Positions 1 through 9,216 of a DNA stretch of 64,000 nucleotides are shown in pieces. The translations under genes and the position numbers were made by a program. Positions within the stretch are counted from its first letter, which is position 1, and every line of letters begins with the position of its first letter. Source of the stretch: an uncultured Gammaproteobacteria bacterium (GTDB lineage: Bacteria > Patescibacteriota > Microgenomatia > 2-02-FULL-39-11); the NCBI GenBank assembly GCA_964544585.1, contig CAZJBV010000003.1, positions 16,950-80,949 of the forward strand. The letters are read 5' to 3'. The notes under the pieces are model-generated. The model ran no database searches, was not told the DNA's origin, and saw only the letters and a list, made by a program, of their open reading frames with translations.

Positions 1-2154
1 ACTACTTGGACTTTAGCTGCTGTTGGAGCTACCTCAAATACCAAGGTAGGACAAACAACAAATGAAATTGTAGTTACGAAAGATGTAATTGTTCGTCCGA
101 TAACCCCCAACATTTTGAGAACTGGTGATGAAATAGTACTATCAGCCATTGTTCAAAACTTTACAGAACAAGACCAATCATTTGATATAGATCTTAAATT
201 TGACTCAGGAGAGGTTGATCAAGCTCTACAATCAAATGTTGCACTAAAGTCAAACGAAATGCAGCAATTTTATTGGAAAGTCAAACCCACCAAGGAAAAC
301 GATAAATCCAAGTTAGTCTTCGGTACAAGGGCAAAAAATGATAATATATTGGGTGATGTTGTCACGCAAGTAATTCCCGTTCGGCCATTTGGTTTTGAGG
401 AAAGAAGAGCTGAAGCTGGAGAAGACGCAAAAACATTCCAAGTTAAGTTGGCTCCGGATAGTCATAAAGAAAAATCTACAGTAACCCTTTCCCTGTCTCC
501 GGCAATAATTGGCACCCTTCCAACAGCAATGAAGTATCTTATTGATTATCCCTATGGTTGTGTAGAACAAACAACAAGCCGATTTGTTCCAGCAGTAATT
601 GCAAAAGTAAATCAAGATTTATTTACAGAAGCCCTAAAAGATAAAGATATAAATGATGTTATTGATAAAGGCATTTCGAGACTATCAACCCTACAACAAG
701 GAGACGGTGGATGGGCATGGTGGTTCTCTGGAAATTCTGACCCATACATAACGGCTTACGTCATTGAGTACGTTATTCAGGCAAAACAGGCAGGAATTAA
801 AGTAGATGATGATTTTCTGAAGCGAGCACAAAGTTATCTTGAAAAAGAAAGATACTATGATTCTAAATCTCAACAAGAAGTAAATTACCAAAGAGAAGAT
901 TTAATAGCAAAGAACTATGGATTAATCTTACTGGGTGCTAAAAATAAAGTTAAGAAAGTAAATGACTTAAGTAATCTAAGTCCTGATCTACTAGCTCTGG
1001 CTGTAATGACAAACTATCTTAACGGCGACAAAAATTCTCAAAGTAATGGTTTAAACCAGCTAGTATCTATTGCGCAGACTCAAGGTGATGCAGTATTTTG
1101 GGAAGGTGGTAATAAAGTGAATTTTGGTTCTAAGGATGCCTCAACTGCTTTGGCAATTCGTGCAATAGCGCTTGCAGGAGGAGATAGGGATTTAGCAGTC
1201 AAAGCAACAAGATACCTTACTCGAGTTCGCCAATCAGATTACTGGTCAAACACCTATGCAACTGCGCAGGTGATTCGCGCTCTTGTTGATCTTTCGAGGA
1301 CTGGTAATGAGCTTACACCAAATTATACATATTCAGTTACGTTAGATGGCAAACAAATTGCCCAAGGATCAGTATCAAACTCTAAGCAAGTAATAAAAGA
1401 TATTGAGATACCAGCTGCAAATCTAAAATCTGGTGGCTCCAGTATTTCATTAACTAAAAATGGGACTGGACAAATTTATTCCACTCTCGTAATCAACGAA
1501 TTCCATACAGACAGAGATACTCCAGCAGTAAACAATGGGTTATCTGTTAGAAGAGAATACGTTAATGAAAAAGGTGAACAACATACGTTAGCGGTGGGCG
1601 ATACAGCTATAGTTAAGATAACTGTAAGTGGACTCAAAGCTAATGAAAATTACGGTGTTATAAATGATGAATTACCCTCAGGCCTCGTCCCGATAAATCA
1701 GGCATTTAAGAACGAGCAATATGGATACGATCCAAATACTTACTATTCCTCTTATGGTGTAACTGACAGAGAGATTACTGAAAATGGGATGGTGCTGTCG
1801 CTTTATCAAATCGCTTCTGGAGAGCGTACTTATACTTACAAAGCACGTGTTGTAAACGAAGGCACATTTATTGTGCCCCCCGCCACCGCTTCCCTTATGT
1901 ATGCACCAGAGATATACGGTAGATCAGATGTGCAAACAGTCAAGATTACCAAAGAATCAGAGATAATACCTACAAAAGCTCCAAAAGAAGCAGTAGAAAA
2001 ATATACCAAACAGATTATCGCTGCAATAATACTCATAGTTTTGACAGCGATTGGAGTAATCATAAGAATGAAAAAACGAAACAGGCCGCCTACTCCTATA
2101 GAACCAACTCAACCAAGCAATACTACACCTGGTAATGACCAACATGGACAATGA
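1..2154 (+). CDS. alpha-2-macroglobulin family thioester-containing protein (5' partial, C-terminal membrane anchor)
   Basis: The reading frame stays open back to base 1, so the ORF track start at 115 is an internal TTG. The thioester motif GCVEQ sits inside YPYGCVEQTTSRF. There is a C-terminal hydrophobic segment followed by a Pro/Thr-rich tail. Confidence 0.7.
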   Translation, partial: TTWTLAAVGATSNTKVGQTTNEIVVTKDVIVRPITPNILRTGDEIVLSAIVQNFTEQDQSFDIDLKFDSGEVDQALQSNVALKSNEMQQFYWKVKPTKENDKSKLVFGTRAKNDNILGDVVTQVIPVRPFGFEERRAEAGEDAKTFQVKLAPDSHKEKSTVTLSLSPAIIGTLPTAMKYLIDYPYGCVEQTTSRFVPAVIAKVNQDLFTEALKDKDINDVIDKGISRLSTLQQGDGGWAWWFSGNSDPYITAYVIEYVIQAKQAGIKVDDDFLKRAQSYLEKERYYDSKSQQEVNYQREDLIAKNYGLILLGAKNKVKKVNDLSNLSPDLLALAVMTNYLNGDKNSQSNGLNQLVSIAQTQGDAVFWEGGNKVNFGSKDASTALAIRAIALAGGDRDLAVKATRYLTRVRQSDYWSNTYATAQVIRALVDLSRTGNELTPNYTYSVTLDGKQIAQGSVSNSKQVIKDIEIPAANLKSGGSSISLTKNGTGQIYSTLVINEFHTDRDTPAVNNGLSVRREYVNEKGEQHTLAVGDTAIVKITVSGLKANENYGVINDELPSGLVPINQAFKNEQYGYDPNTYYSSYGVTDREITENGMVLSLYQIASGERTYTYKARVVNEGTFIVPPATASLMYAPEIYGRSDVQTVKITKESEIIPTKAPKEAVEKYTKQIIAAIILIVLTAIGVIIRMKKRNRPPTPIEPTQPSNTTPGNDQHGQ

Positions 2155-3071
2155 TTTACAAAAAACTGTTTCTGTTGTTATTTATTTTGTTCCTGGTAGG
2201 ATTTCTTTGGACAGTTACAATTAGGCATAATCCTCTCGTTAAAATTGGACAAAAAAATTCTCTAGACGTATCAATCACGGATAATAATCGGCTAGCTCAT
2301 CCATTAGTTTTTTTTGACAAAGATGCCTTTTATAGAGGAGTTGAAGAAGCCAAAACTAAAAATAAAATATTTATAGACCACGCATTTGGAGGTATTGTCC
2401 CTCACCATCTTTTTCCAGGTTTTATTATCACCGACTTCTTTAATCGACTATCGAAACAAAATCCTAATACGATTATTCTAATAGGCCCAAATCACTATGA
2501 ACGAGGTGATTATCACGCGCTCGCAAGTCTTTATAAGTGGGAAACACCTTTTGGGACTGTTGATCCAAACGAACAAGTTATTCAAGAGTTAGTTAAAAAC
2601 AAAATGGTACAAATAGATGAAAATGTTTTGCCTGAAGATCATGCTGTAGCTGGAATGATGCCTTTTATAAAATATTACCTTCCAAATACTAAGGTTGTCC
2701 CAATCCTTCTAAGTGGTTTTATGACTGAGATAGACACCCAGATACTTTCTAACGAACTGAAAAATTATGTTGACTCAGACTCAGTAATTATCGCAGCTGT
2801 AGACTTCTCTCATAATCTAACAAATCAACAAGCACAAGAAAAGGATAGGACAACTTTAGAATTAATGAGGAGCTTTAATTACAAACAATTATTAAGTCTT
2901 AACAACGAATATCTTGATAGTCCCTCATCCATTACAGTCTTTTTGAAGATAATGCAAGCATTGGGTACTACTAAGATGGAGATATTCTATCATACAAATT
3001 CCGGAGAATTACAAAAAAATGATTATATAGAAACTACAAGTTATTTTTCAATTGCTTACTATAAATTATGA
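2151..3071 (+). CDS. MEMO1-family protein (AmmeMemoRadiSam system protein B-like)
   Basis: Conserved His-rich motifs (HAFGGIVPHH, GPNHY, EDHAVAG) match the Memo/extradiol dioxygenase-B-like fold. An N-terminal TM segment is present. The start overlaps the upstream stop (ATGA). Confidence 0.5.
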   Translation: MIYKKLFLLLFILFLVGFLWTVTIRHNPLVKIGQKNSLDVSITDNNRLAHPLVFFDKDAFYRGVEEAKTKNKIFIDHAFGGIVPHHLFPGFIITDFFNRLSKQNPNTIILIGPNHYERGDYHALASLYKWETPFGTVDPNEQVIQELVKNKMVQIDENVLPEDHAVAGMMPFIKYYLPNTKVVPILLSGFMTEIDTQILSNELKNYVDSDSVIIAAVDFSHNLTNQQAQEKDRTTLELMRSFNYKQLLSLNNEYLDSPSSITVFLKIMQALGTTKMEIFYHTNSGELQKNDYIETTSYFSIAYYKL

Positions 3072-3272
3072 TAGCATCGGCTCTACCCTGAAGTCTTATT
3101 GCGCTTCCAATATTCTATACATCAAACACTTCCTGTCCGGAAACATTTAATCTCCTCATTTTTTCAACCATATTAGGTGGGATAAATGGCTCTGCCATCA
3201 AAGTAAAAAGATTATACACTTAAAGCTTTGTGAAAATACTTGACTCTATGTAAATAAAATTATATCATTTGT

Positions 3273-3602
3273 ATGTATATGCAAATGAAGAAATTAAAAG
3301 CTCTAAGGAAGGAACTCCAGGATAACACAAAAATAGAGACATGTGCCATAAGGTTTGGAACTACAGGCGATCTAACCCGCATGAAGATCTGCTACCTTCT
3401 CTGTCACTATCCACAGCTTTCAGTTTCCCAGATTGCCCAGATTATCGACGCCCCAATCTCTACAGTATCTCACAGCTTAAAAAAGCTGAAAACTATCGAG
3501 CTTGTTGAGAATCGTCGTCAAGCCAAAGCGGTATTCTACTCATTAACGAACAATAAGTTTGCCGCAGTTATTAAAGAACAATTACTTTCAGCATATGAAT
3601 AA
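3273..3602 (+). CDS. ArsR/SmtB-family metalloregulator (HTH)
   Basis: The winged HTH signature ISTVSHSLKKLKTIELVENRRQAKAVFYSL is present. The gene is located at the head of the metal-resistance-like cluster. Confidence 0.7.
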   Translation: MYMQMKKLKALRKELQDNTKIETCAIRFGTTGDLTRMKICYLLCHYPQLSVSQIAQIIDAPISTVSHSLKKLKTIELVENRRQAKAVFYSLTNNKFAAVIKEQLLSAYE

Positions 3603-4188
3603 GAAAATATTATTATTGGGGCTTATTATCATCATAGGTGGCTACCTATATTACTCAAGTAACAAACCAATCTTCAATTTCTCTCAACAACCCACAACCA
3701 ATTCACAAATAAATGTAAGTGAAGCTGTCGCCTCAAAATTTGATTATCTTTCCCAGAATGGCAACTCTTCTTGCTCTCTTTCGTTTAAAGACTCTATTCC
3801 AAATATGGCAGATGAGGAAAGACTGCTTGGCTCTTGTTGTAGCCCGATGAGCCTACATCGGTATAGTGAACAGGTTGAAGGTATCAAAAAATATTCACAT
3901 ATCCCCGAGATCCCCCCAGATCCATATGATATTGAGGTAGGACTAGCTAAGAAACTGCTGCCTTATTATGACCAAAATCTAACTTCCTCTGAACAAAAGG
4001 CTTATGACTTTGCCATGCAAAACTCGGATGAAAAAGGACCCTGCTGTTGTAAATGTTGGCGATGGTATGTGTATGGCGGACTTGGTAAATACCTCATAAA
4101 AAATTACAAGTTCACAGGCGAACAACTTACCGAAGTCTGGAATTTCTCCGATGGTTGCGGCGGAGATAGCGAGCATCACCATGCATAA
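3595..4188 (+). CDS. Cys-rich secreted protein, hypothetical metal-binding
   Basis: The ATG at 3595 is in frame and overlaps the arsR stop. It has an N-terminal signal-like segment MNKKILLLGLIIIIGG. Cys clusters include SCCSP, GPCCCKC and DGCGGDSEHHH. Confidence 0.4.
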   Translation: MNKKILLLGLIIIIGGYLYYSSNKPIFNFSQQPTTNSQINVSEAVASKFDYLSQNGNSSCSLSFKDSIPNMADEERLLGSCCSPMSLHRYSEQVEGIKKYSHIPEIPPDPYDIEVGLAKKLLPYYDQNLTSSEQKAYDFAMQNSDEKGPCCCKCWRWYVYGGLGKYLIKNYKFTGEQLTEVWNFSDGCGGDSEHHHA

Positions 4189-5641
4189 ACCAGTCCTTAC
4201 TGCCTTGTTTTACGGGTTAATAGGTTTAGTTGCCTCTTTGGCCTTATTCTTAGTCTTCTATTGGAGCTTAAGCCTTAATGCTAGTATTTACAATCTAGTC
4301 ACAAACTTCTCCACCGATTTACCTTTGTATTTTTGGCCGTATATCATCTTGACAGTCGGGACCATCATTCTTTTTGGTATCAACGTACCACTTTTTATTT
4401 ATCGCGTTCGAAAATACGGTTTTCCAAAATTTAGAATTCAAGGATCAACCGGCCTTGGAAGTGTAATTGGAGTTTTAGCCTCGGCTTGCCCAGTTTGCGG
4501 CTCAACTCTTCTTTCGGCAATTGGAATTGCTGGCGGACTTACAGCTTTTCCTCTTGGTGGGCTCGAGTTAAAAGCCCTATCATTTGGTCTTATGGCACTG
4601 CCTATTGTCTTAACCGGCAGGGAACTTTCAAGATTTGCTAAGGGTGGAAAAGCTTGCCCTGTACCTCGTGATGCTTCATTCAAGACCAAAGACAAACCAT
4701 GGCTTTTAGTTTTGGTTGTGGCAGTTGCACTTTTGGGATATTGGGGATTTAAAATGCTATCCCAAGACCCAATCTTTTTTGGATTCGTGAGTAAAACTAA
4801 CATTATCAATCCTAATGACAATCAGCTTTATGATGCCAGTCAAACCCCTGCCGAGAATAACCCTCTTTATGACGAGGTTGTGGCAAAAGTCTTACCAGAA
4901 AGAGGTTTTCAAAGCAAAATCGTATTGACTGATAGTATAGTCAAATTAGTAAAAAATGGGGTTATAGACAAGCAAAAATTTGAAAATATTTATAAAGAAA
5001 GGGGCGGTTTACCGCCCGAACTAAAAAATGTTTTAACCATTAAAACAGACAAAAGAATTCTTTTAACCAGAGAAAATGCCAACTATTATGTAAATCTCCT
5101 CTGGCCTCTTGGGTTATCCAACTATATGTCTACCAATAATAAAAGTCCCATCCTTGGAGACTCGCTTTTTAATTTTGCCTCAACTGGAGGTTGGAAATTA
5201 GGCAAAGAAGAAAATGGAGGTGCGTATTTTAATAAGCTTAAGATTGTTAAATTAACCAGAGAACAAGAAGCTTTGGTAACAAAGATTGCGCAAAATACCT
5301 ATCGACCTTGTTGTGATAATTCTACCTTCTTCCAAGACTGTAATCACGGATCAGCTCTTCTCGGCCTTTTAGAACTCGGAGCCTCTCAAGGACTCACCGA
5401 AGAAGAGCTTTACAGGGAAGCCCTAGCTTTTAATTCATTTTGGTTCCCTCATAATTATATTCAAACCGCACTTTATTTTAAGGTAGCAAAGAATACAAAT
5501 TGGGAAGATGTAAATCCTGCCGAAGTAATGGGGTATGACTATTCAGCTGTTAGTAATTGGGCAAAAAATGTTCAGGTGGAAATCGCTAAAATTCCCAATC
5601 TTCTTCCACAAACAAGAAGTGGCGTAGGTTGTGGGGTATAA
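4181..5641 (+). CDS. polytopic membrane protein with CPVCG motif and Cys-containing C-terminal domain (hypothetical)
   Basis: The internal Met at 4181 overlaps the upstream stop. Four to five N-terminal TM helices carry ACPVCGSTLL. The soluble C-terminal domain contains RPCCDNSTFFQDCNHG. Confidence 0.4.
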   Translation: MHKPVLTALFYGLIGLVASLALFLVFYWSLSLNASIYNLVTNFSTDLPLYFWPYIILTVGTIILFGINVPLFIYRVRKYGFPKFRIQGSTGLGSVIGVLASACPVCGSTLLSAIGIAGGLTAFPLGGLELKALSFGLMALPIVLTGRELSRFAKGGKACPVPRDASFKTKDKPWLLVLVVAVALLGYWGFKMLSQDPIFFGFVSKTNIINPNDNQLYDASQTPAENNPLYDEVVAKVLPERGFQSKIVLTDSIVKLVKNGVIDKQKFENIYKERGGLPPELKNVLTIKTDKRILLTRENANYYVNLLWPLGLSNYMSTNNKSPILGDSLFNFASTGGWKLGKEENGGAYFNKLKIVKLTREQEALVTKIAQNTYRPCCDNSTFFQDCNHGSALLGLLELGASQGLTEEELYREALAFNSFWFPHNYIQTALYFKVAKNTNWEDVNPAEVMGYDYSAVSNWAKNVQVEIAKIPNLLPQTRSGVGCGV

Positions 5642-5701
5642 ATACTAAGGGGGTGAGAAATTATGGAGCCATGTTGTCCTTGTGGAGCCTAAATAAAGAT
5701 A

Positions 5702-7108
5702 ATGAATGAGTACGATTTAGTCATTATTGGTGCTGGTGCAGGAGCATTTGCCGCTGCAATTAAGGCAGATGAATTAAGCGCTAAAACCCTGATGGTAAAT
5801 AAAGGTTTGCCTATTGGCGGAACATGCGTCAACGTCGGCTGTGTACCATCCAAAACCCTCCTTTGGGCCGGCGAAATCATGCACCAAGCCAAACATCACG
5901 GCATCCCCGGAATTGATATTGAAGTTAAAAACTTTGATTTTTCAAGAGTTGTCCAGCATGAACTTGATCTGGTTGAAAAATTACGGGTTGAAAAGTATGA
6001 AAAGGTGCTCAAAGCCTTAGAACATGTAACTCACTTGGAAGGACAAACACGCTTTGTTTCTTCAAACGAAATAGAAGTTGATGGTCAAAAATATCAAGGG
6101 AAGAAATTTATTATTGCCGCTGGATCCACCGCGATTATCCCACCAATTGAGAACATACGAGAAGTTGGGTACCTCACGCATATTGAAGCTTTAAAACTCA
6201 AACAGCAACCGAAAGAACTTATAGTTGTAGGAGCAGGCCCACTCGGACTTGAGTTTGCCCAAATGTATGCACGATTTGGCACAAAAGTAACTATTCTTCA
6301 TAGAGGTCCATCGATTTTCCATGGAGAAGAAGAATTGATTACTAGGCTAGCAGAAATTCTGACTAAAGAAGGTATCACTATTAAAACAAACGTCCAAGTT
6401 CAAAAAGCATATAAAGATGGGGATAAAAAGGTTTTAGTTTACAAAGAAACAGACTCATCCGCCGAAACTTTAGTAAAGGCGGATGAAATTTTGCTTGCTA
6501 CGGGTAAAACACCTAATACACAAGAGTTAGAACTAGATAAAGTAGATGTGGAAGTTGACAAAAGTCAAGCTATAAAGGTAAATCAGCAGTTCCAAACCTC
6601 GCAGGAACATATCTATGCAGTTGGAGACGTCACAAATGCTCCTTTGCGCCTTGAACCAACTGCAGGCAGAGAAGGAACATTAGCCGCTGAAAATGCCTTA
6701 AAGAATACGCAAAATAGCATTGATTACAATACTGTCCCTTGGACTATCTTCACTGATCCACAACTAGCAGGAGTAGGATTTACTGAAGAAGAGCAAATGA
6801 AGAAATTTGGTACTTGTATGTGCAAAACTGTATCTTTCAAAGACGTACCGAAAGCCTTGATAATAAACAGAACCGAAGGACTTATCAAAATGGCAATTCA
6901 TCCTGAAACTAAACAGATTATGGGAGTGCACATCTTGGCTCCAAATGCTGGTGAGCTAATAGCAGAGGCAATGATGCTTATTAGAAATAAAAACTCTATT
7001 GATGATGTGGTAAATTTACTCCCAATGTTTCCTACACTTTCAGAATCGATAAAAATTGCTGCACTATCATTTACCAAAGACATTTCAAAATTAAGTTGCT
7101 GTGTCTAA
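5702..7108 (+). CDS. merA: mercuric reductase core (pyridine nucleotide-disulfide oxidoreductase, no NmerA domain)
   Basis: A FAD-binding GAGAGA motif is present. The redox-active site GGTCVNVGCVPSK is identical to the MerA/DLDH class I active site. The protein ends in ...KLSCCV, a C-terminal Cys-Cys pair characteristic of MerA. Confidence 0.65.
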   Translation: MNEYDLVIIGAGAGAFAAAIKADELSAKTLMVNKGLPIGGTCVNVGCVPSKTLLWAGEIMHQAKHHGIPGIDIEVKNFDFSRVVQHELDLVEKLRVEKYEKVLKALEHVTHLEGQTRFVSSNEIEVDGQKYQGKKFIIAAGSTAIIPPIENIREVGYLTHIEALKLKQQPKELIVVGAGPLGLEFAQMYARFGTKVTILHRGPSIFHGEEELITRLAEILTKEGITIKTNVQVQKAYKDGDKKVLVYKETDSSAETLVKADEILLATGKTPNTQELELDKVDVEVDKSQAIKVNQQFQTSQEHIYAVGDVTNAPLRLEPTAGREGTLAAENALKNTQNSIDYNTVPWTIFTDPQLAGVGFTEEEQMKKFGTCMCKTVSFKDVPKALIINRTEGLIKMAIHPETKQIMGVHILAPNAGELIAEAMMLIRNKNSIDDVVNLLPMFPTLSESIKIAALSFTKDISKLSCCV

Positions 7109-7546
7109 TACCTTTACTTCTAAACTAAACCTCTGTTTCTTAGGTGGTAGGCAAAGTGTAGCAGTGCATCCCTGATATGAAAGCATTCCTTCGATAGGAC
7201 GTTTGCCCGACTTTGCATTTTTATCTACTTCGGTCGGCATCATAATCTTGATTTTGCCCTCATAAACTAGAAGCTCGACTTTCATTTTGTCATCTTGACG
7301 GAAGACATAAATTTAGGTAAACTTTCGTTTACCTTTAAAATCCTCTAATTTGATTTGGTAAGAGTTTTTTAGAGTATAATTCCTTTCTTCTTTTCCCAGA
7401 TAATATCAAAGATTTCCAAAAGAATCTTGCCGAAATAGCAGGTTACCTAGGAAATTAATATAAAAAGCCCCGCCTGCCGGCAGGCAGGACGCCGGCGTGT
7501 TAAAAATCCTCTACTTTACATACATATCAAATTTGATATAATAAAT

Positions 7547-7903
7547 ATGGAATTTAACATACTATTTTACCAAGACGAAAAGGGAGATAGTCCCATTGAG
7601 GAATTTCTGCTTGAATTAGGTAAAATAAATAGAATTTTGGTAGCTAAAACTCAACAAGGTATTGAAAAGTTAAAAAACAAGGCATACCATAGAGAACCTT
7701 TGTCAAAATATCTTGAACCTGGACTTTGGGAACTAAGAATCAAAGCAGGAAATGATATTTTGAGGATTATCTATACATTTGCAAAAGGACAAATAATAAT
7801 TTTGTTACATATTTTTATAAAAAAGAAACAAAAAACACCTATGACTGATTTTAAGATGGCAAGAAAAAGATTAAAAGAAATCAAACTAATGGAGGTAAAT
7901 TAA
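7547..7903 (+). CDS. higB: type II toxin, HigB/RelE-ParE superfamily (Gp49-like)
   Basis: Sequence GLWELRIKAGNDILRIIYTFAKGQIIILLHIFIKKKQKTP is typical of the phage Gp49-like HigB family. It sits toxin-first, 1 nt before an XRE antitoxin. Confidence 0.75.
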   Translation: MEFNILFYQDEKGDSPIEEFLLELGKINRILVAKTQQGIEKLKNKAYHREPLSKYLEPGLWELRIKAGNDILRIIYTFAKGQIIILLHIFIKKKQKTPMTDFKMARKRLKEIKLMEVN

Positions 7904-7904
7904 C

Positions 7905-8225
7905 ATGAAAAGACGAAAAGATGATTTAGATAGATTAAAAGAGAAATTATTAAAACAAGATCCTTCTCTTAAAGAAGAATTTGAGAAAGCCGATCGAGCG
8001 TGGGATATTGCATTTCAAATTTACGACTTGAGGCAAAAAGCAGGACTAACCCAGACACAATTAGCTAAACTGGTAGGCACCAGGCAATCAAACATTGCCC
8101 GCATAGAATCAGCAGATTATACCGGGTATACTTTTAAAACGCTTGAAAAAGTAGCAAAAGCGCTACAGGCAAAATTACAAATCAAAATAGTCCCTGAGAC
8201 TAAGAACAGAATGGCTCAAATATAA
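7905..8225 (+). CDS. higA: HigA-like antitoxin, XRE-family HTH
   Basis: The HTH reads LTQTQLAKLVGTRQSNIARIE. The gene lies immediately downstream of the HigB-like gene. Confidence 0.7.
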   Translation: MKRRKDDLDRLKEKLLKQDPSLKEEFEKADRAWDIAFQIYDLRQKAGLTQTQLAKLVGTRQSNIARIESADYTGYTFKTLEKVAKALQAKLQIKIVPETKNRMAQI

Positions 8226-8232
8226 TTGACTC

Positions 8233-9216
8233 CTACATCACCATTACCGCTGAACCATTAATGTTGCCAATTCTGACATCAGATAAAGCCTGATTAATTT
8301 CACTAAATTTATAAAGATTTATATTAAGTTTTAAAGGAATTTTCTGGGCTAATTTTAAAAATTCCTCACCGTCTTTCCTAGTTAGATTTGCAATCGTTGT
8401 CAGCGTCTTTTCACTCCATAAAAGTTTATAATGAAACGTAGGAATATCACTCATATGTATTCCCGCGCACACAACTACACCTCCGGGTTCTAAAACTTTT
8501 AATGCTTGCGGAATCAACGCCCCAACAGGCGCAAAAATAATAACACCCTCAAGAGGGTGAGGAGGCATTTCCCCAGAACTCCCCACCCATACCGCTCCTA
8601 ATTTTCTTGCTAGTTCCTGTCCCTCGTCATCTCCGGGTCGTGTAAATACATACACCTTTTTTCCTTGAGCTTTGGCAATTTGTATCAGTATATGCGCACT
8701 CGATCCAAAACCATAAAATCCAATTCTCTCAAAATTCTCGACCATCCGATATGCTCTAAAACCTACCAACCCCGCGCACAATAATGGCGCAGCCTCCATA
8801 TCATCATACCGCTCAGGTATTTTAAAACAATAATTTTCATTAGCAACACAATATTGGGAAAATCCACCATTTACATCTTTTCCCGTAAATTTTGCTCGTT
8901 TACATAAATTCTCTTTTCCTTTTTGGCAAAATCGGCATCTACCACAAGTCCACGAAAGCCAACCCACTCCCACTCTCTCACCCAACGAAAATCGCGTCAC
9001 ACTTTTTCCAAGTTTTTCTACCTTGCCGACAATCTGATGTCCTGGCACAATTGGATAAGAAATGTCAGCCAACTCCTCATCCACAATATGCACATCAGTC
9101 CGGCAAACCCCACAAGCATTTATTTTAATAAGAACCTCCGAAATCCCGGGCTCCGGAATTGGCAAATCAACCATTTGTAGAGGTTGACCTTTATTAAAAA
9201 GTTGCATCGCTTTCAT
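8233..9216 (-). CDS. zinc-dependent alcohol dehydrogenase (MDR family)
   Basis: The catalytic Zn motif GVCRTDVH and the structural Zn cluster CGRCRFCQKGKENLC are both present. Confidence 0.8.
   Translation of the reverse strand: MKAMQLFNKGQPLQMVDLPIPEPGISEVLIKINACGVCRTDVHIVDEELADISYPIVPGHQIVGKVEKLGKSVTRFSLGERVGVGWLSWTCGRCRFCQKGKENLCKRAKFTGKDVNGGFSQYCVANENYCFKIPERYDDMEAAPLLCAGLVGFRAYRMVENFERIGFYGFGSSAHILIQIAKAQGKKVYVFTRPGDDEGQELARKLGAVWVGSSGEMPPHPLEGVIIFAPVGALIPQALKVLEPGGVVVCAGIHMSDIPTFHYKLLWSEKTLTTIANLTRKDGEEFLKLAQKIPLKLNINLYKFSEINQALSDVRIGNINGSAVMVM

Follow-up and report, generated by a model that had tools for sequence, protein, structure and literature searches.

The subject of this analysis is a 64-kb stretch of DNA, hereafter the window, from a genome of Candidatus Gottesmanbacteria (Candidate Phyla Radiation, CPR/Patescibacteria), and within it a mercury-resistance (mer) cluster at 3273-7108. 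The cluster consists of four co-directional genes in the order ArsR-type regulator, protein A, protein B and mercuric reductase (MerA), and the four open reading frames (ORFs) are found in the window, all in one direction, at the positions given by a preliminary description of this DNA. The features of the locus are listed below; related loci with which it was compared are labelled with L-numbers.

3240-3268, plus strand: promoter-like site with TTGACT (-35), a 17-nt spacer and TATCAT (-10), recognised by its sequence and conserved layout
3265-3288, no strand assigned: candidate ArsR operator, the inverted repeat TCATTTGTAT-gtat-ATGCAAATGA, with 10-nt arms that are 90% complementary
3273-3602, plus strand: ArsR/SmtB-family repressor (likely start 3279, MQMKK), from NF033788, PF01022 and a Cys triad
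3595-4188, plus strand: protein A, 197 aa, predicted to be membrane-anchored at the N-terminus, with a helical extracytoplasmic domain, from homologue alignment and the hydrophobic N-terminus
4181-4759, plus strand: membrane domain of protein B (B_N), residues 1-193, with five predicted transmembrane (TM) helices and the N-terminus inside, from hydropathy, the positive-inside count and invariant Cys
4862-5641, plus strand: predicted extracytoplasmic domain of protein B (B_C), about residues 228-486, from alignment and standalone homologues
5648-5692, plus strand: Shine-Dalgarno sequence AGGGGGTGA (5648-5656) followed by the mini-ORF MEPCCPCGA (5663-5692), from the sequence and from equivalents in six loci
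5702-7108, plus strand: MerA, a core mercuric reductase without NmerA, 468 aa, from TIGR02053, PDB ranking and the signature residues C42/C47, Y99, F443 and C466/C467

The ArsR gene and the gene of A share an 8-nt overlap (ATGAATAA, 3595-3602), and so do those of A and B (ATGCATAA, 4181-4188). In contrast, the stop of B at 5641 and the start of MerA at 5702 are separated by a gap of 60 nt, which contains a strong Shine-Dalgarno sequence and a conserved Cys-rich mini-ORF of 9 codons. The overlap of each gene with the stop of the previous one, as first described, thus holds for the ArsR/A and A/B junctions but not for B/MerA. A database search returned 2,017 homologues of A and 1,410 of B, mostly at 60-80% identity and distributed across Microgenomates and Parcubacteria, and relatives of A/B occur in 278 GTDB species genomes; A and B are therefore genuine genes, as had been assumed, and not chance ORFs.

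The mercuric reductase, its regulator and the mini-ORF

The assignment of the last gene as MerA is based on hidden Markov model (HMM) cut-offs, on the ranking of PDB matches, on signature sites and on the published placement of the CPR lineage. Its product scored 511.4 bits against TIGR02053, the MerA equivalog model (cut-off 454.45), whereas the 374.2 bits obtained with the lipoamide dehydrogenase model were under the cut-off of that model (408.8), and the scores with the glutathione reductase, RclA and hypothiocyanous-acid reductase 'MerA' models were far under each cut-off. The top three PDB matches (4ywo, 5x1y and 1zk7) are all MerA, the best being the NmerA-less enzyme of Metallosphaera sedula, 4ywo. 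MerA is defined by four sites, namely the redox Cys pair, a C-terminal vicinal Cys pair, Tyr264, and Tyr605 in bacterial or Phe605 in archaeal enzymes (Boyd & Barkay 2012, PMC3466566), and all four were found in the window protein. The redox-active pair (Bacillus 207/212) is C42/C47 in GGTCVNVGCVPSK, and the C-terminal one (Bacillus 628/629) is C466/C467 in ...KLSCCV, the aligned counterparts being SCCV in 4ywo and SCC in 5x1y; the redox site IGGTCVNVGCVPSK and the LSCCV end had both been noticed before and were read here in the window protein. Y99 (R-x-EKY) is at the Tyr264 site and aligns with the KY of 4ywo and 5x1y, while F443 (MFPT) aligns with F in 4ywo and with Y in 5x1y and is therefore the archaeal-type residue at the 605 site. 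TIGR02053 spans residues 4-468 (model positions 1-464) and PRK13748, which contains NmerA, aligned only from its position 98, so that both alignments agree with the earlier statement that the NmerA domain is not present. The HMM scores and signature residues rule out a dihydrolipoamide dehydrogenase, a glutathione reductase or RclA, and, together with the PDB ranking, they bear out the initial preference for MerA over dihydrolipoamide dehydrogenase.

The window MerA is 77% identical to that of a Candidatus Daviesbacteria genome. It is known that the CPR MerA clades K12-K14 (Daviesbacteria, Peregrinibacteria and Giovannonibacteria) nest inside the MerA tree as sister to thermophilic euryarchaeal MerA, and the lineage was inferred to have been acquired by lateral transfer (Christakis 2021, PMC8261052). 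Since that work describes CPR MerA, including that of Daviesbacteria, the presence of MerA in CPR is already known. A text search of the same paper did not find the words 'ArsR' and 'transporter', and accessory and regulatory genes of CPR mer operons are apparently not covered in it; a literature search on the accessory genes of these operons returned MerA phylogeny only.

The first gene had been described as an ArsR/SmtB-family regulator, and this is confirmed by scores above the cut-offs for NF033788 (61.3 bits, cut-off 55) and for the winged helix-turn-helix family model PF01022 (34.2 bits, cut-off 22, E 2.4e-8). Its translation probably begins at 3279 (MQMKK, as in homologues) rather than at 3273. 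The canonical alpha3 CxC site (ELCVCDL) is not found, the corresponding stretch being QLSVSQI according to our own reading of the Pfam coordinates. Three cysteines, C24, C40 and C44, are invariant in 10 homologues and would form a different type of sensory site, as is permitted within the family. ArsR-type regulators are a known alternative to MerR in mer operons and have been documented in Sulfolobus and Streptomyces (PMC3466566).

Upstream of the ArsR gene, a TTGACA-N17-TAyyAT layout is found in more than 20 related loci. The candidate operator overlaps with both the -10 box and the start codon of ArsR; it is kept as TCATTTGTATA-ga-TATGCAAATGA in L012, L013, L020 and L042, and about 17 other ArsR-MerA loci carry the variant TATTTGAA-N6-TTCAAATA. 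Counting both variants, a candidate operator in the form of an inverted repeat over the promoter of the ArsR gene is present in more than 20 loci. Since the repeat overlaps the -10 box and the start codon, and the ATG comes right after it, this arrangement implies a transcript that would be leaderless or near-leaderless and autoregulated. Considering MerA, ArsR and the operator together, we regard the cluster with high confidence as a mer operon.

The mini-ORF stops 9 nt ahead of the MerA ATG. Six other loci carry equivalents 3-11 nt before merA (MGPCCPCRA, MCPDCN, MCPNCG in three loci, and MCPNCS), each preceded by the same Shine-Dalgarno sequence whether the upstream gene is B, MerC-like or arsR. 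The Cys codons of the mini-ORF display synonymous TGT/TGC changes, and the remaining positions vary. No Shine-Dalgarno sequence is obvious for merA itself in this set of loci, and the mini-ORF would therefore be at least a translational coupler for MerA; its conserved CxxC suggests a role beyond translational coupling.

Proteins A and B and the genes around them

Eight Cys are invariant in protein A (C60, CC81-82, CCC150-152, C154 and C188); its motifs include GSCCSP and GPCCCKCWRW, and C188 sits in a flexible tail, DGCGGDSEHHH. The N-terminus consists of MNKK followed by a hydrophobic helix, with no obvious signal-peptidase cleavage site by eye, and a membrane-anchored protein appears more likely than a secreted one. 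The secreted protein with CC/CCC clusters of the preliminary description therefore keeps its clusters but probably not its secretion.

The description of A and B as uncharacterised was also correct, since no Pfam or NCBIfam family was found for either (for B at Pfam E <= 0.01 and NCBIfam E <= 1) and their profiles gave no meaningful match against all PDB sequences. The two proteins were not similar to each other by BLASTP (best E 0.7), their AlphaFold models (pLDDT 76 and 79) retrieved nothing below E = 1 from the PDB with Foldseek, and family-model scans disclosed no homology of A or B to MerT, MerP, MerC, MerF or MerE. Similarly, A and B_C had no match to MerP, HMA, TRASH or YHS metallochaperones, either by sequence (Pfam, NCBIfam, PDB profile) or by fold (Foldseek).

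Protein B, of 486 or 496 aa (another possible start lies at 4151), is 100% identical to NCBI HYW54_02970. As previously described, it is a membrane protein with CPVCG in its TM region and an RPCCDN-containing domain: an invariant CPVC (C103/C106) lies in the middle of TM3, within ASACPVCGS in a hydrophobic segment, and RPCCDN...DCNHG is C-terminal. A single Cys, C159, is in a predicted K/R-rich cytoplasmic loop, and many B homologues have CX4C in the corresponding loop. In the outer part of B, of 290 aa, the motifs ASTGGW and RPCCxNSTFFQDCNHG are invariant and the C-terminus is formed by a CGV tail, and B_C alone constitutes proteins of about 310-330 aa in Proteobacteria. Many Parcubacteria homologues of B (L014, L019, L029, L030 and others) have an extra N-terminal Cys-rich domain (CxxC...CxxxC...H..C), predicted to be cytoplasmic, which is DUF7128 above the Pfam threshold. 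With a strict pattern, a twin-arginine-like start (e.g. SRRRFSAML) was found in 9 of 81 B_C-only proteins (P0245, P0247, P0256, P0280 and P0332 among them), a minority that rules it out as a trait of the B_C family and hints at Tat export of pre-folded or cofactor-loaded B_C in some lineages.

We compared gene context from the MerA side in 33 metagenome loci, in which MerA was mostly 52-82% identical to that of the window. ArsR was usually upstream of MerA, and the content of the slot between them was variable: a TlpA-like redoxin together with one MerC-family protein or two of them (PF03203, 34 bits, cut-off 27.6); a 68-aa CC protein, a DUF3105/thioredoxin protein and CxxC membrane proteins of 146 and 174 aa (f146 and f174); or f174 alone (L094). 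The core arrangement ArsR-f174-MerA was found in L094 and L120-L123, with YHS or MerC genes downstream in L120-L123. The f174 family is small and CPR-restricted, and its close members are confined to such operons; the stop of f174 and the start of MerA are 3-5 nt apart in L094, L101-L103 and L120-L123, and the C-terminus of f174 is a cytoplasmic CxxC.

The membrane domain of B was not matched by the MerT, MerC, MerF, MerE and MerTP models. It has a TM Cys pair and a cytoplasmic Cys, which are hallmarks of Hg(II) transporters, but the resemblance is one of possible mode of action and not of family membership. In contrast, B_N is homologous to f174 (hhalign probability 96.3%, E 1.8e-9) and to standalone B_N-like proteins of 165-193 aa (98.2%). 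By hmmsearch, B_N-like standalones next to A-B were found with E values from 1e-8 down to 4e-15, and the 165-aa protein of L120 with 3e-12. Besides this profile homology, the other hallmarks of the B_N/f174 family, a G-rich TM CxxC and a cytoplasmic Cys after the next TM, are present in B_N. The f146 family is borderline with respect to B_N (hhalign 83%), the 187-aa family of L086 is unsupported as a relative (15.9%), and a MerC-like nature of B_N is ruled out by the value of 0.7% obtained with CPR MerC-like proteins. Since B_N is homologous to a protein encoded directly upstream of MerA, these results support a role for B in Hg(II) handover. The early suggestion that the Cys-rich pair stands in place of merT/merP thus gains comparative support from the slot variants and from the B_N-f174 homology, but not in the sense of a homology to MerT or MerP.

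From the B side, context was examined in 80 loci, in which metal and thiol neighbours were counted within 5 kb. Protein A is encoded directly upstream of B in at least 36 of them. ArsR is present in 10, and 8 of these 10 carry a match of the MerA cluster, which includes three weak non-MerA members among the ArsR-less loci. The order ArsR-A-B-MerA is also found in L012, L020, L026, L042 and L050, and a rearranged one in L028 (ArsR-A-MerA-B) and L090 (ArsR-MerA-HWHP-B). At least one metal or thiol-redox neighbour was found in 45 of the 80 loci. In other B loci, the neighbours are HMBD copper-type P-ATPases and DsbA-like proteins (12 loci each), TlpA-like redoxins, cupredoxins, DsbD_2 and Met-rich SHOCT proteins (7 each), rhodanese (5), and several unknown proteins with Cys or His motifs.

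The HWHP protein just mentioned, membrane-anchored and of about 150-200 aa, has the motifs HWHP...IHTHD...H-x-E and CIF(D/E)xCN and is beside B in 19 loci (L008, L011, L012, L018, L023, L030 and L090 among them), in L012 between B and MerA. It had no significant Pfam match and may be another metal-binding accessory protein. In L090, the ArsR-MerA-HWHP-B cluster (4078-9197) lies between two IS200-like Y1 transposase genes (PF01797), and this bracketing suggests that the metal cluster is mobile as a composite unit in CPR genomes. In L119 and L120, pairs of a BlaI/CopY-like (Penicillinase_R) regulator and an M56 peptidase precede DsbA-like-B_N-like-A modules, and these modules adjoin ArsR-MerC-MerA or ArsR-f174-MerA-YHS units; therefore, two separately regulated modules for thiophilic metals are side by side in these loci.

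Proteobacterial homologues keep every Cys of A and B_C at 41-63% identity (B_C 41-48%, A 56-63%). They are found in copper/heavy-metal islands with P-type ATPases, multicopper oxidase (MCO), SCO1, DUF411/CopG, MsrPQ, CusA, CcdA and TlpA, and such islands are carried by conjugative plasmids of Burkholderia contaminans, Paraburkholderia fungorum and Sinorhizobium. In L125-L128 (P. fungorum, B. contaminans, Sinorhizobium sp. M14 pSinB and S. meliloti plasmids) the homologues of A and B_C are annotated as 'hypothetical protein'. Examples are WP_027810704.1 and WP_028197075.1 for B_C on Burkholderia or Paraburkholderia plasmids, and WP_115422038.1 for A on pSinB. In the two Burkholderiaceae plasmids inspected, one of Burkholderia and one of Paraburkholderia, the B_C homologue is next to a class I SAM-dependent methyltransferase.

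Proposed working of the operon and rival explanations

On the observed gene identities, conservation and operon architectures we place a model in which metal binding, the direction of transfer and the inducer are what we infer. The operon, of an archaeal-type MerA lineage spread among CPR, would be functional in mercury resistance. The three-Cys thiolate-sensing ArsR would bind the inverted repeat over the -10 box and repress the leaderless arsR-A-B-miniORF-merA transcript, and Hg(II) would release it from the operator. As expected from its family membership, MerA would use NAD(P)H to convert Hg(II) in the cytoplasm into Hg(0), the metal being fed to the C42/C47 site by the flexible pair of Cys at the C-terminus. 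Proteins A and B would take the accessory slot that is held in sibling operons by MerC-family or 174-aa CxxC membrane proteins. With A anchored on the extracytoplasmic side of the membrane, the vicinal-Cys clusters and Cys-bearing tails of A and B_C might capture Hg(II) outside the cell. From there, thiol ligand exchange would bring it first to the CPVC in the middle of TM3, after that to the Cys of the cytoplasmic loop and finally to MerA, a MerP-MerT-MerA logic without homology. To this reading of A and B as an Hg(II) capture-and-handover set we give an even chance. What supports it is that the slot is exchangeable, that B_N is homologous to CxxC membrane proteins encoded next to MerA, that the Cys are placed in a MerT-like way, and that A, B and MerA stay together through rearrangements.

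Several observations weigh against a capture-and-handover set. True MerA is nearby in 11 of the 80 B loci (about 14%), so that about 86% are without it, and most B loci are in the company of copper ATPase, cupredoxin, DsbA-like, DsbD_2, TlpA-like, Met-rich or rhodanese genes. A and B_C are encoded apart from each other on plasmids of Sinorhizobium and Burkholderia, where neither B_N nor MerA accompanies them. The slot is empty in the minimal ArsR-MerA operons of L097, L109 and L114, which shows that the accessory proteins are dispensable, and in L011 the A-B unit adjoins a separate ArsR-MerC-MerA unit and is therefore not a transporter replacement there. In addition, the window B has only one Cys in the cytoplasmic loop, and neither A nor B has sequence or fold similarity to known mer transporters or metallochaperones. 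Finally, the arrangements DsbA-CcdA-A of Proteobacteria and DsbA-like-B_N-like-A of CPR fit an electron-conduit role equally well. Because of the proportion of loci without MerA, and of the separate occurrence of A and B_C in proteobacterial copper islands, A-B is best regarded, on this comparative evidence, as a general soft-metal/thiol envelope module, mostly copper-linked, that was recruited here and is not mercury-specific. Accordingly, of the original idea of non-canonical Hg(II) uptake or handover components, the part that stands is the one supported by slot equivalence and B_N-f174 homology, while mercury specificity does not.

The strongest alternative, possible although we consider it doubtful, is that A and B are an envelope thiol-redox or copper-tolerance module and not a mercury importer. 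B_N would then export reducing equivalents like CcdA, DsbD or ScsB, and the reduced Cys of B_C and A would serve either to trap Cu(I) or Hg(II) or to mend exported proteins damaged by metal, the module being merely co-regulated with MerA as both answer thiophilic-metal stress. This would account for the many A-B loci without MerA and with DsbA-like, DsbD_2, TlpA-like, cupredoxin, copper-ATPase and Met-rich genes, and the fusion of a TM domain to Cys-bearing outer domains resembles DsbD and ScsB. Moreover, Sinorhizobium plasmids carry SCO-DsbA-CcdA-A inside MCO/DUF411/CusA copper islands, and since the CPR order DsbA-like-B_N-like-A (L119, L120, L064 and L055) parallels this DsbA-CcdA-A, the B_N-like proteins are at the position of CcdA. 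However, neither B nor B_N was matched by the DsbD_TM, DsbD_2, DsbB and VKOR models, though the DsbD_2 models readily match neighbour genes in related loci, and L119 holds both f174-like and DsbD_2 genes, so that a B_N-like protein is not a simple CcdA substitute. The closest relatives of f174 are only in ArsR-f174-MerA operons, without an encoded extracytoplasmic redox partner, and Hg(II) binds thiols but does not oxidise them, so that it would not be detoxified by supplying reductant. At the level of sequence, thiol ligand exchange looks the same as thiol-disulfide exchange.

It is very improbable, in our opinion, that the MerA-like enzyme is not mainly a mercuric reductase but serves the B/f174 thiol relay as its dedicated reductase in the cytoplasm, using NAD(P)H and taking the place of thioredoxin by means of its C-terminal Cys pair. 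MerA does belong to the disulfide-reductase superfamily, and the tight f174-MerA coupling and the cytoplasmic CxxC at the end of f174 would suit such a function; nevertheless, every Hg-specific signature site is present, the score is above the MerA equivalog cut-off and the nearest solved relatives are MerA structures. In the same sense, ArsR-MerA is found alone and with MerC-family transporters, and the CPR lineage nests in the published MerA tree (PMC8261052). Least credible of all is that A and B are unrelated passengers, placed between arsR and merA by an accident of mobile-element assembly and linked neither to mercury nor to each other: the clusters are mobile, as in L090 with its flanking transposase genes, and A and B_C are independent in Proteobacteria, but overlapping start and stop codons bind arsR, A and B in one translational unit, the four-gene order is found in at least 6 genomes of different CPR classes and survives rearrangement (L028 and L090), and the adjacency to MerA in 11 of 80 loci is, by our rough estimate, far above chance for a rare gene.

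Returning to the capture-and-handover set, a wider proposal can be made, which we advance tentatively and hold to be more doubtful than probable. B_N/f174, A and B_C might be three new families that form, in modular fashion, a thiol relay serving thiophilic metals (Hg, Cu and perhaps Ag) across and outside the cytoplasmic membrane, mobile between CPR and Proteobacteria. Within it, B_N/f174 might represent a new class of Hg(II) importer, analogous but unrelated to MerT. The mini-ORF (6-9 codons, CxxC) might either encode a Hg(II)-handling peptide smaller than any known so far, imitating the HMA loop in a minimal 'MCxxC' form, or couple the translation of MerA in a metal-sensitive manner.

Although mer operons are the textbook case of metal detoxification, the catalogue of their accessory genes comes mainly from Proteobacteria and Firmicutes. 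The present locus shows CPR running an archaeal-type MerA under a three-Cys ArsR-type sensor with an exchangeable accessory slot, and the A and B families, with thousands of members and an identity of about 60% from CPR to Proteobacteria, gain a concrete and testable context in the handling of thiophilic metals. Cultured Burkholderia, Paraburkholderia, Sinorhizobium and Ensifer carry homologues of A and B_C on plasmids, which makes the function of these proteins genetically testable there, unlike in CPR. If B_N/f174 does import Hg(II), it would be a new transporter class, useful for annotating the mercury-cycling potential of groundwater metagenomes.

Flanking genes and known systems

The genes flanking the mer cluster are unrelated to metals, and no second metal locus was found in the 64-kb window, in which an Rfam scan gave two tRNAs and no further match. 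Upstream (115-3071) there is an alpha-2-macroglobulin-like gene with bMG10 and TED domains, followed by a homologue of AmmeMemoRadiSam system protein B, the start of which overlaps the end of the former by 4 nt (2151-2154). On the minus strand, a 64-aa ORF (7091-7285), convergent with merA and overlapping its last 18 nt, corresponds to the C-terminal third of the DsbD N-terminal domain alone (PF11412, positions 71-117 of 119) and is probably what remains of a gene for thiol-disulfide interchange; DsbD_2-cupredoxin and HMA genes come after MerA in related loci. Directly 3' of the cluster (7547-8225) is a pair formed by a HigB/Gp49-like toxin (PF05973) and an XRE-family antitoxin, and an alcohol dehydrogenase and a redoxin are encoded farther downstream.

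Among known systems, the operon resembles the archaeal merR-merH-merA-merI of Sulfolobus solfataricus and the system of M. sedula 4ywo in having an ArsR-type repressor instead of MerR and no MerT/MerP, and its MerA resembles the archaeal enzyme and 4ywo in the core without NmerA, in the Phe at the Bacillus 605 position and in an identical ...LSCCV end. It differs from the archaeal operons in its CPR host and in having A, B and the CxxC mini-ORF where archaea have the TRASH-domain chaperone MerH. The likeness to the CPR MerA lineage K12-K14 (PMC8261052) is the 77% identity to a Daviesbacteria MerA; what is newly described here beyond that work is A/B, f146/f174, the MerC/TlpA-like slot variants and the operator.

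With regard to the MerP-MerT-MerA system of Tn501/Tn21, the proposed likeness would be a path from outer Cys to a TM Cys pair by Pro/Gly, to a cytoplasmic-loop Cys pair and to the C-terminal pair of MerA. The TM motif of MerT is ...ASACCLGP..., to be compared with ...ASACPVCGS... in B. However, there is no detectable homology between the two systems: B has five TM helices and the 290-aa outer domain, protein A is a 9-Cys helical protein and not an HMA fold, and the regulator is ArsR-type. The MerC family (PF03203), small membrane proteins that have a Cys pair at the C-terminus besides a TM CxxC, takes the same ArsR-to-MerA slot in sibling CPR operons but is not homologous to B_N. Finally, as compared with the thiol systems of copper tolerance (ScsABCD; DsbA/CcdA/TlpA/SCO/DUF411-CopG), A and B belong to none of the families concerned, although homologues of A and B_C are embedded in such clusters in both Proteobacteria and CPR.

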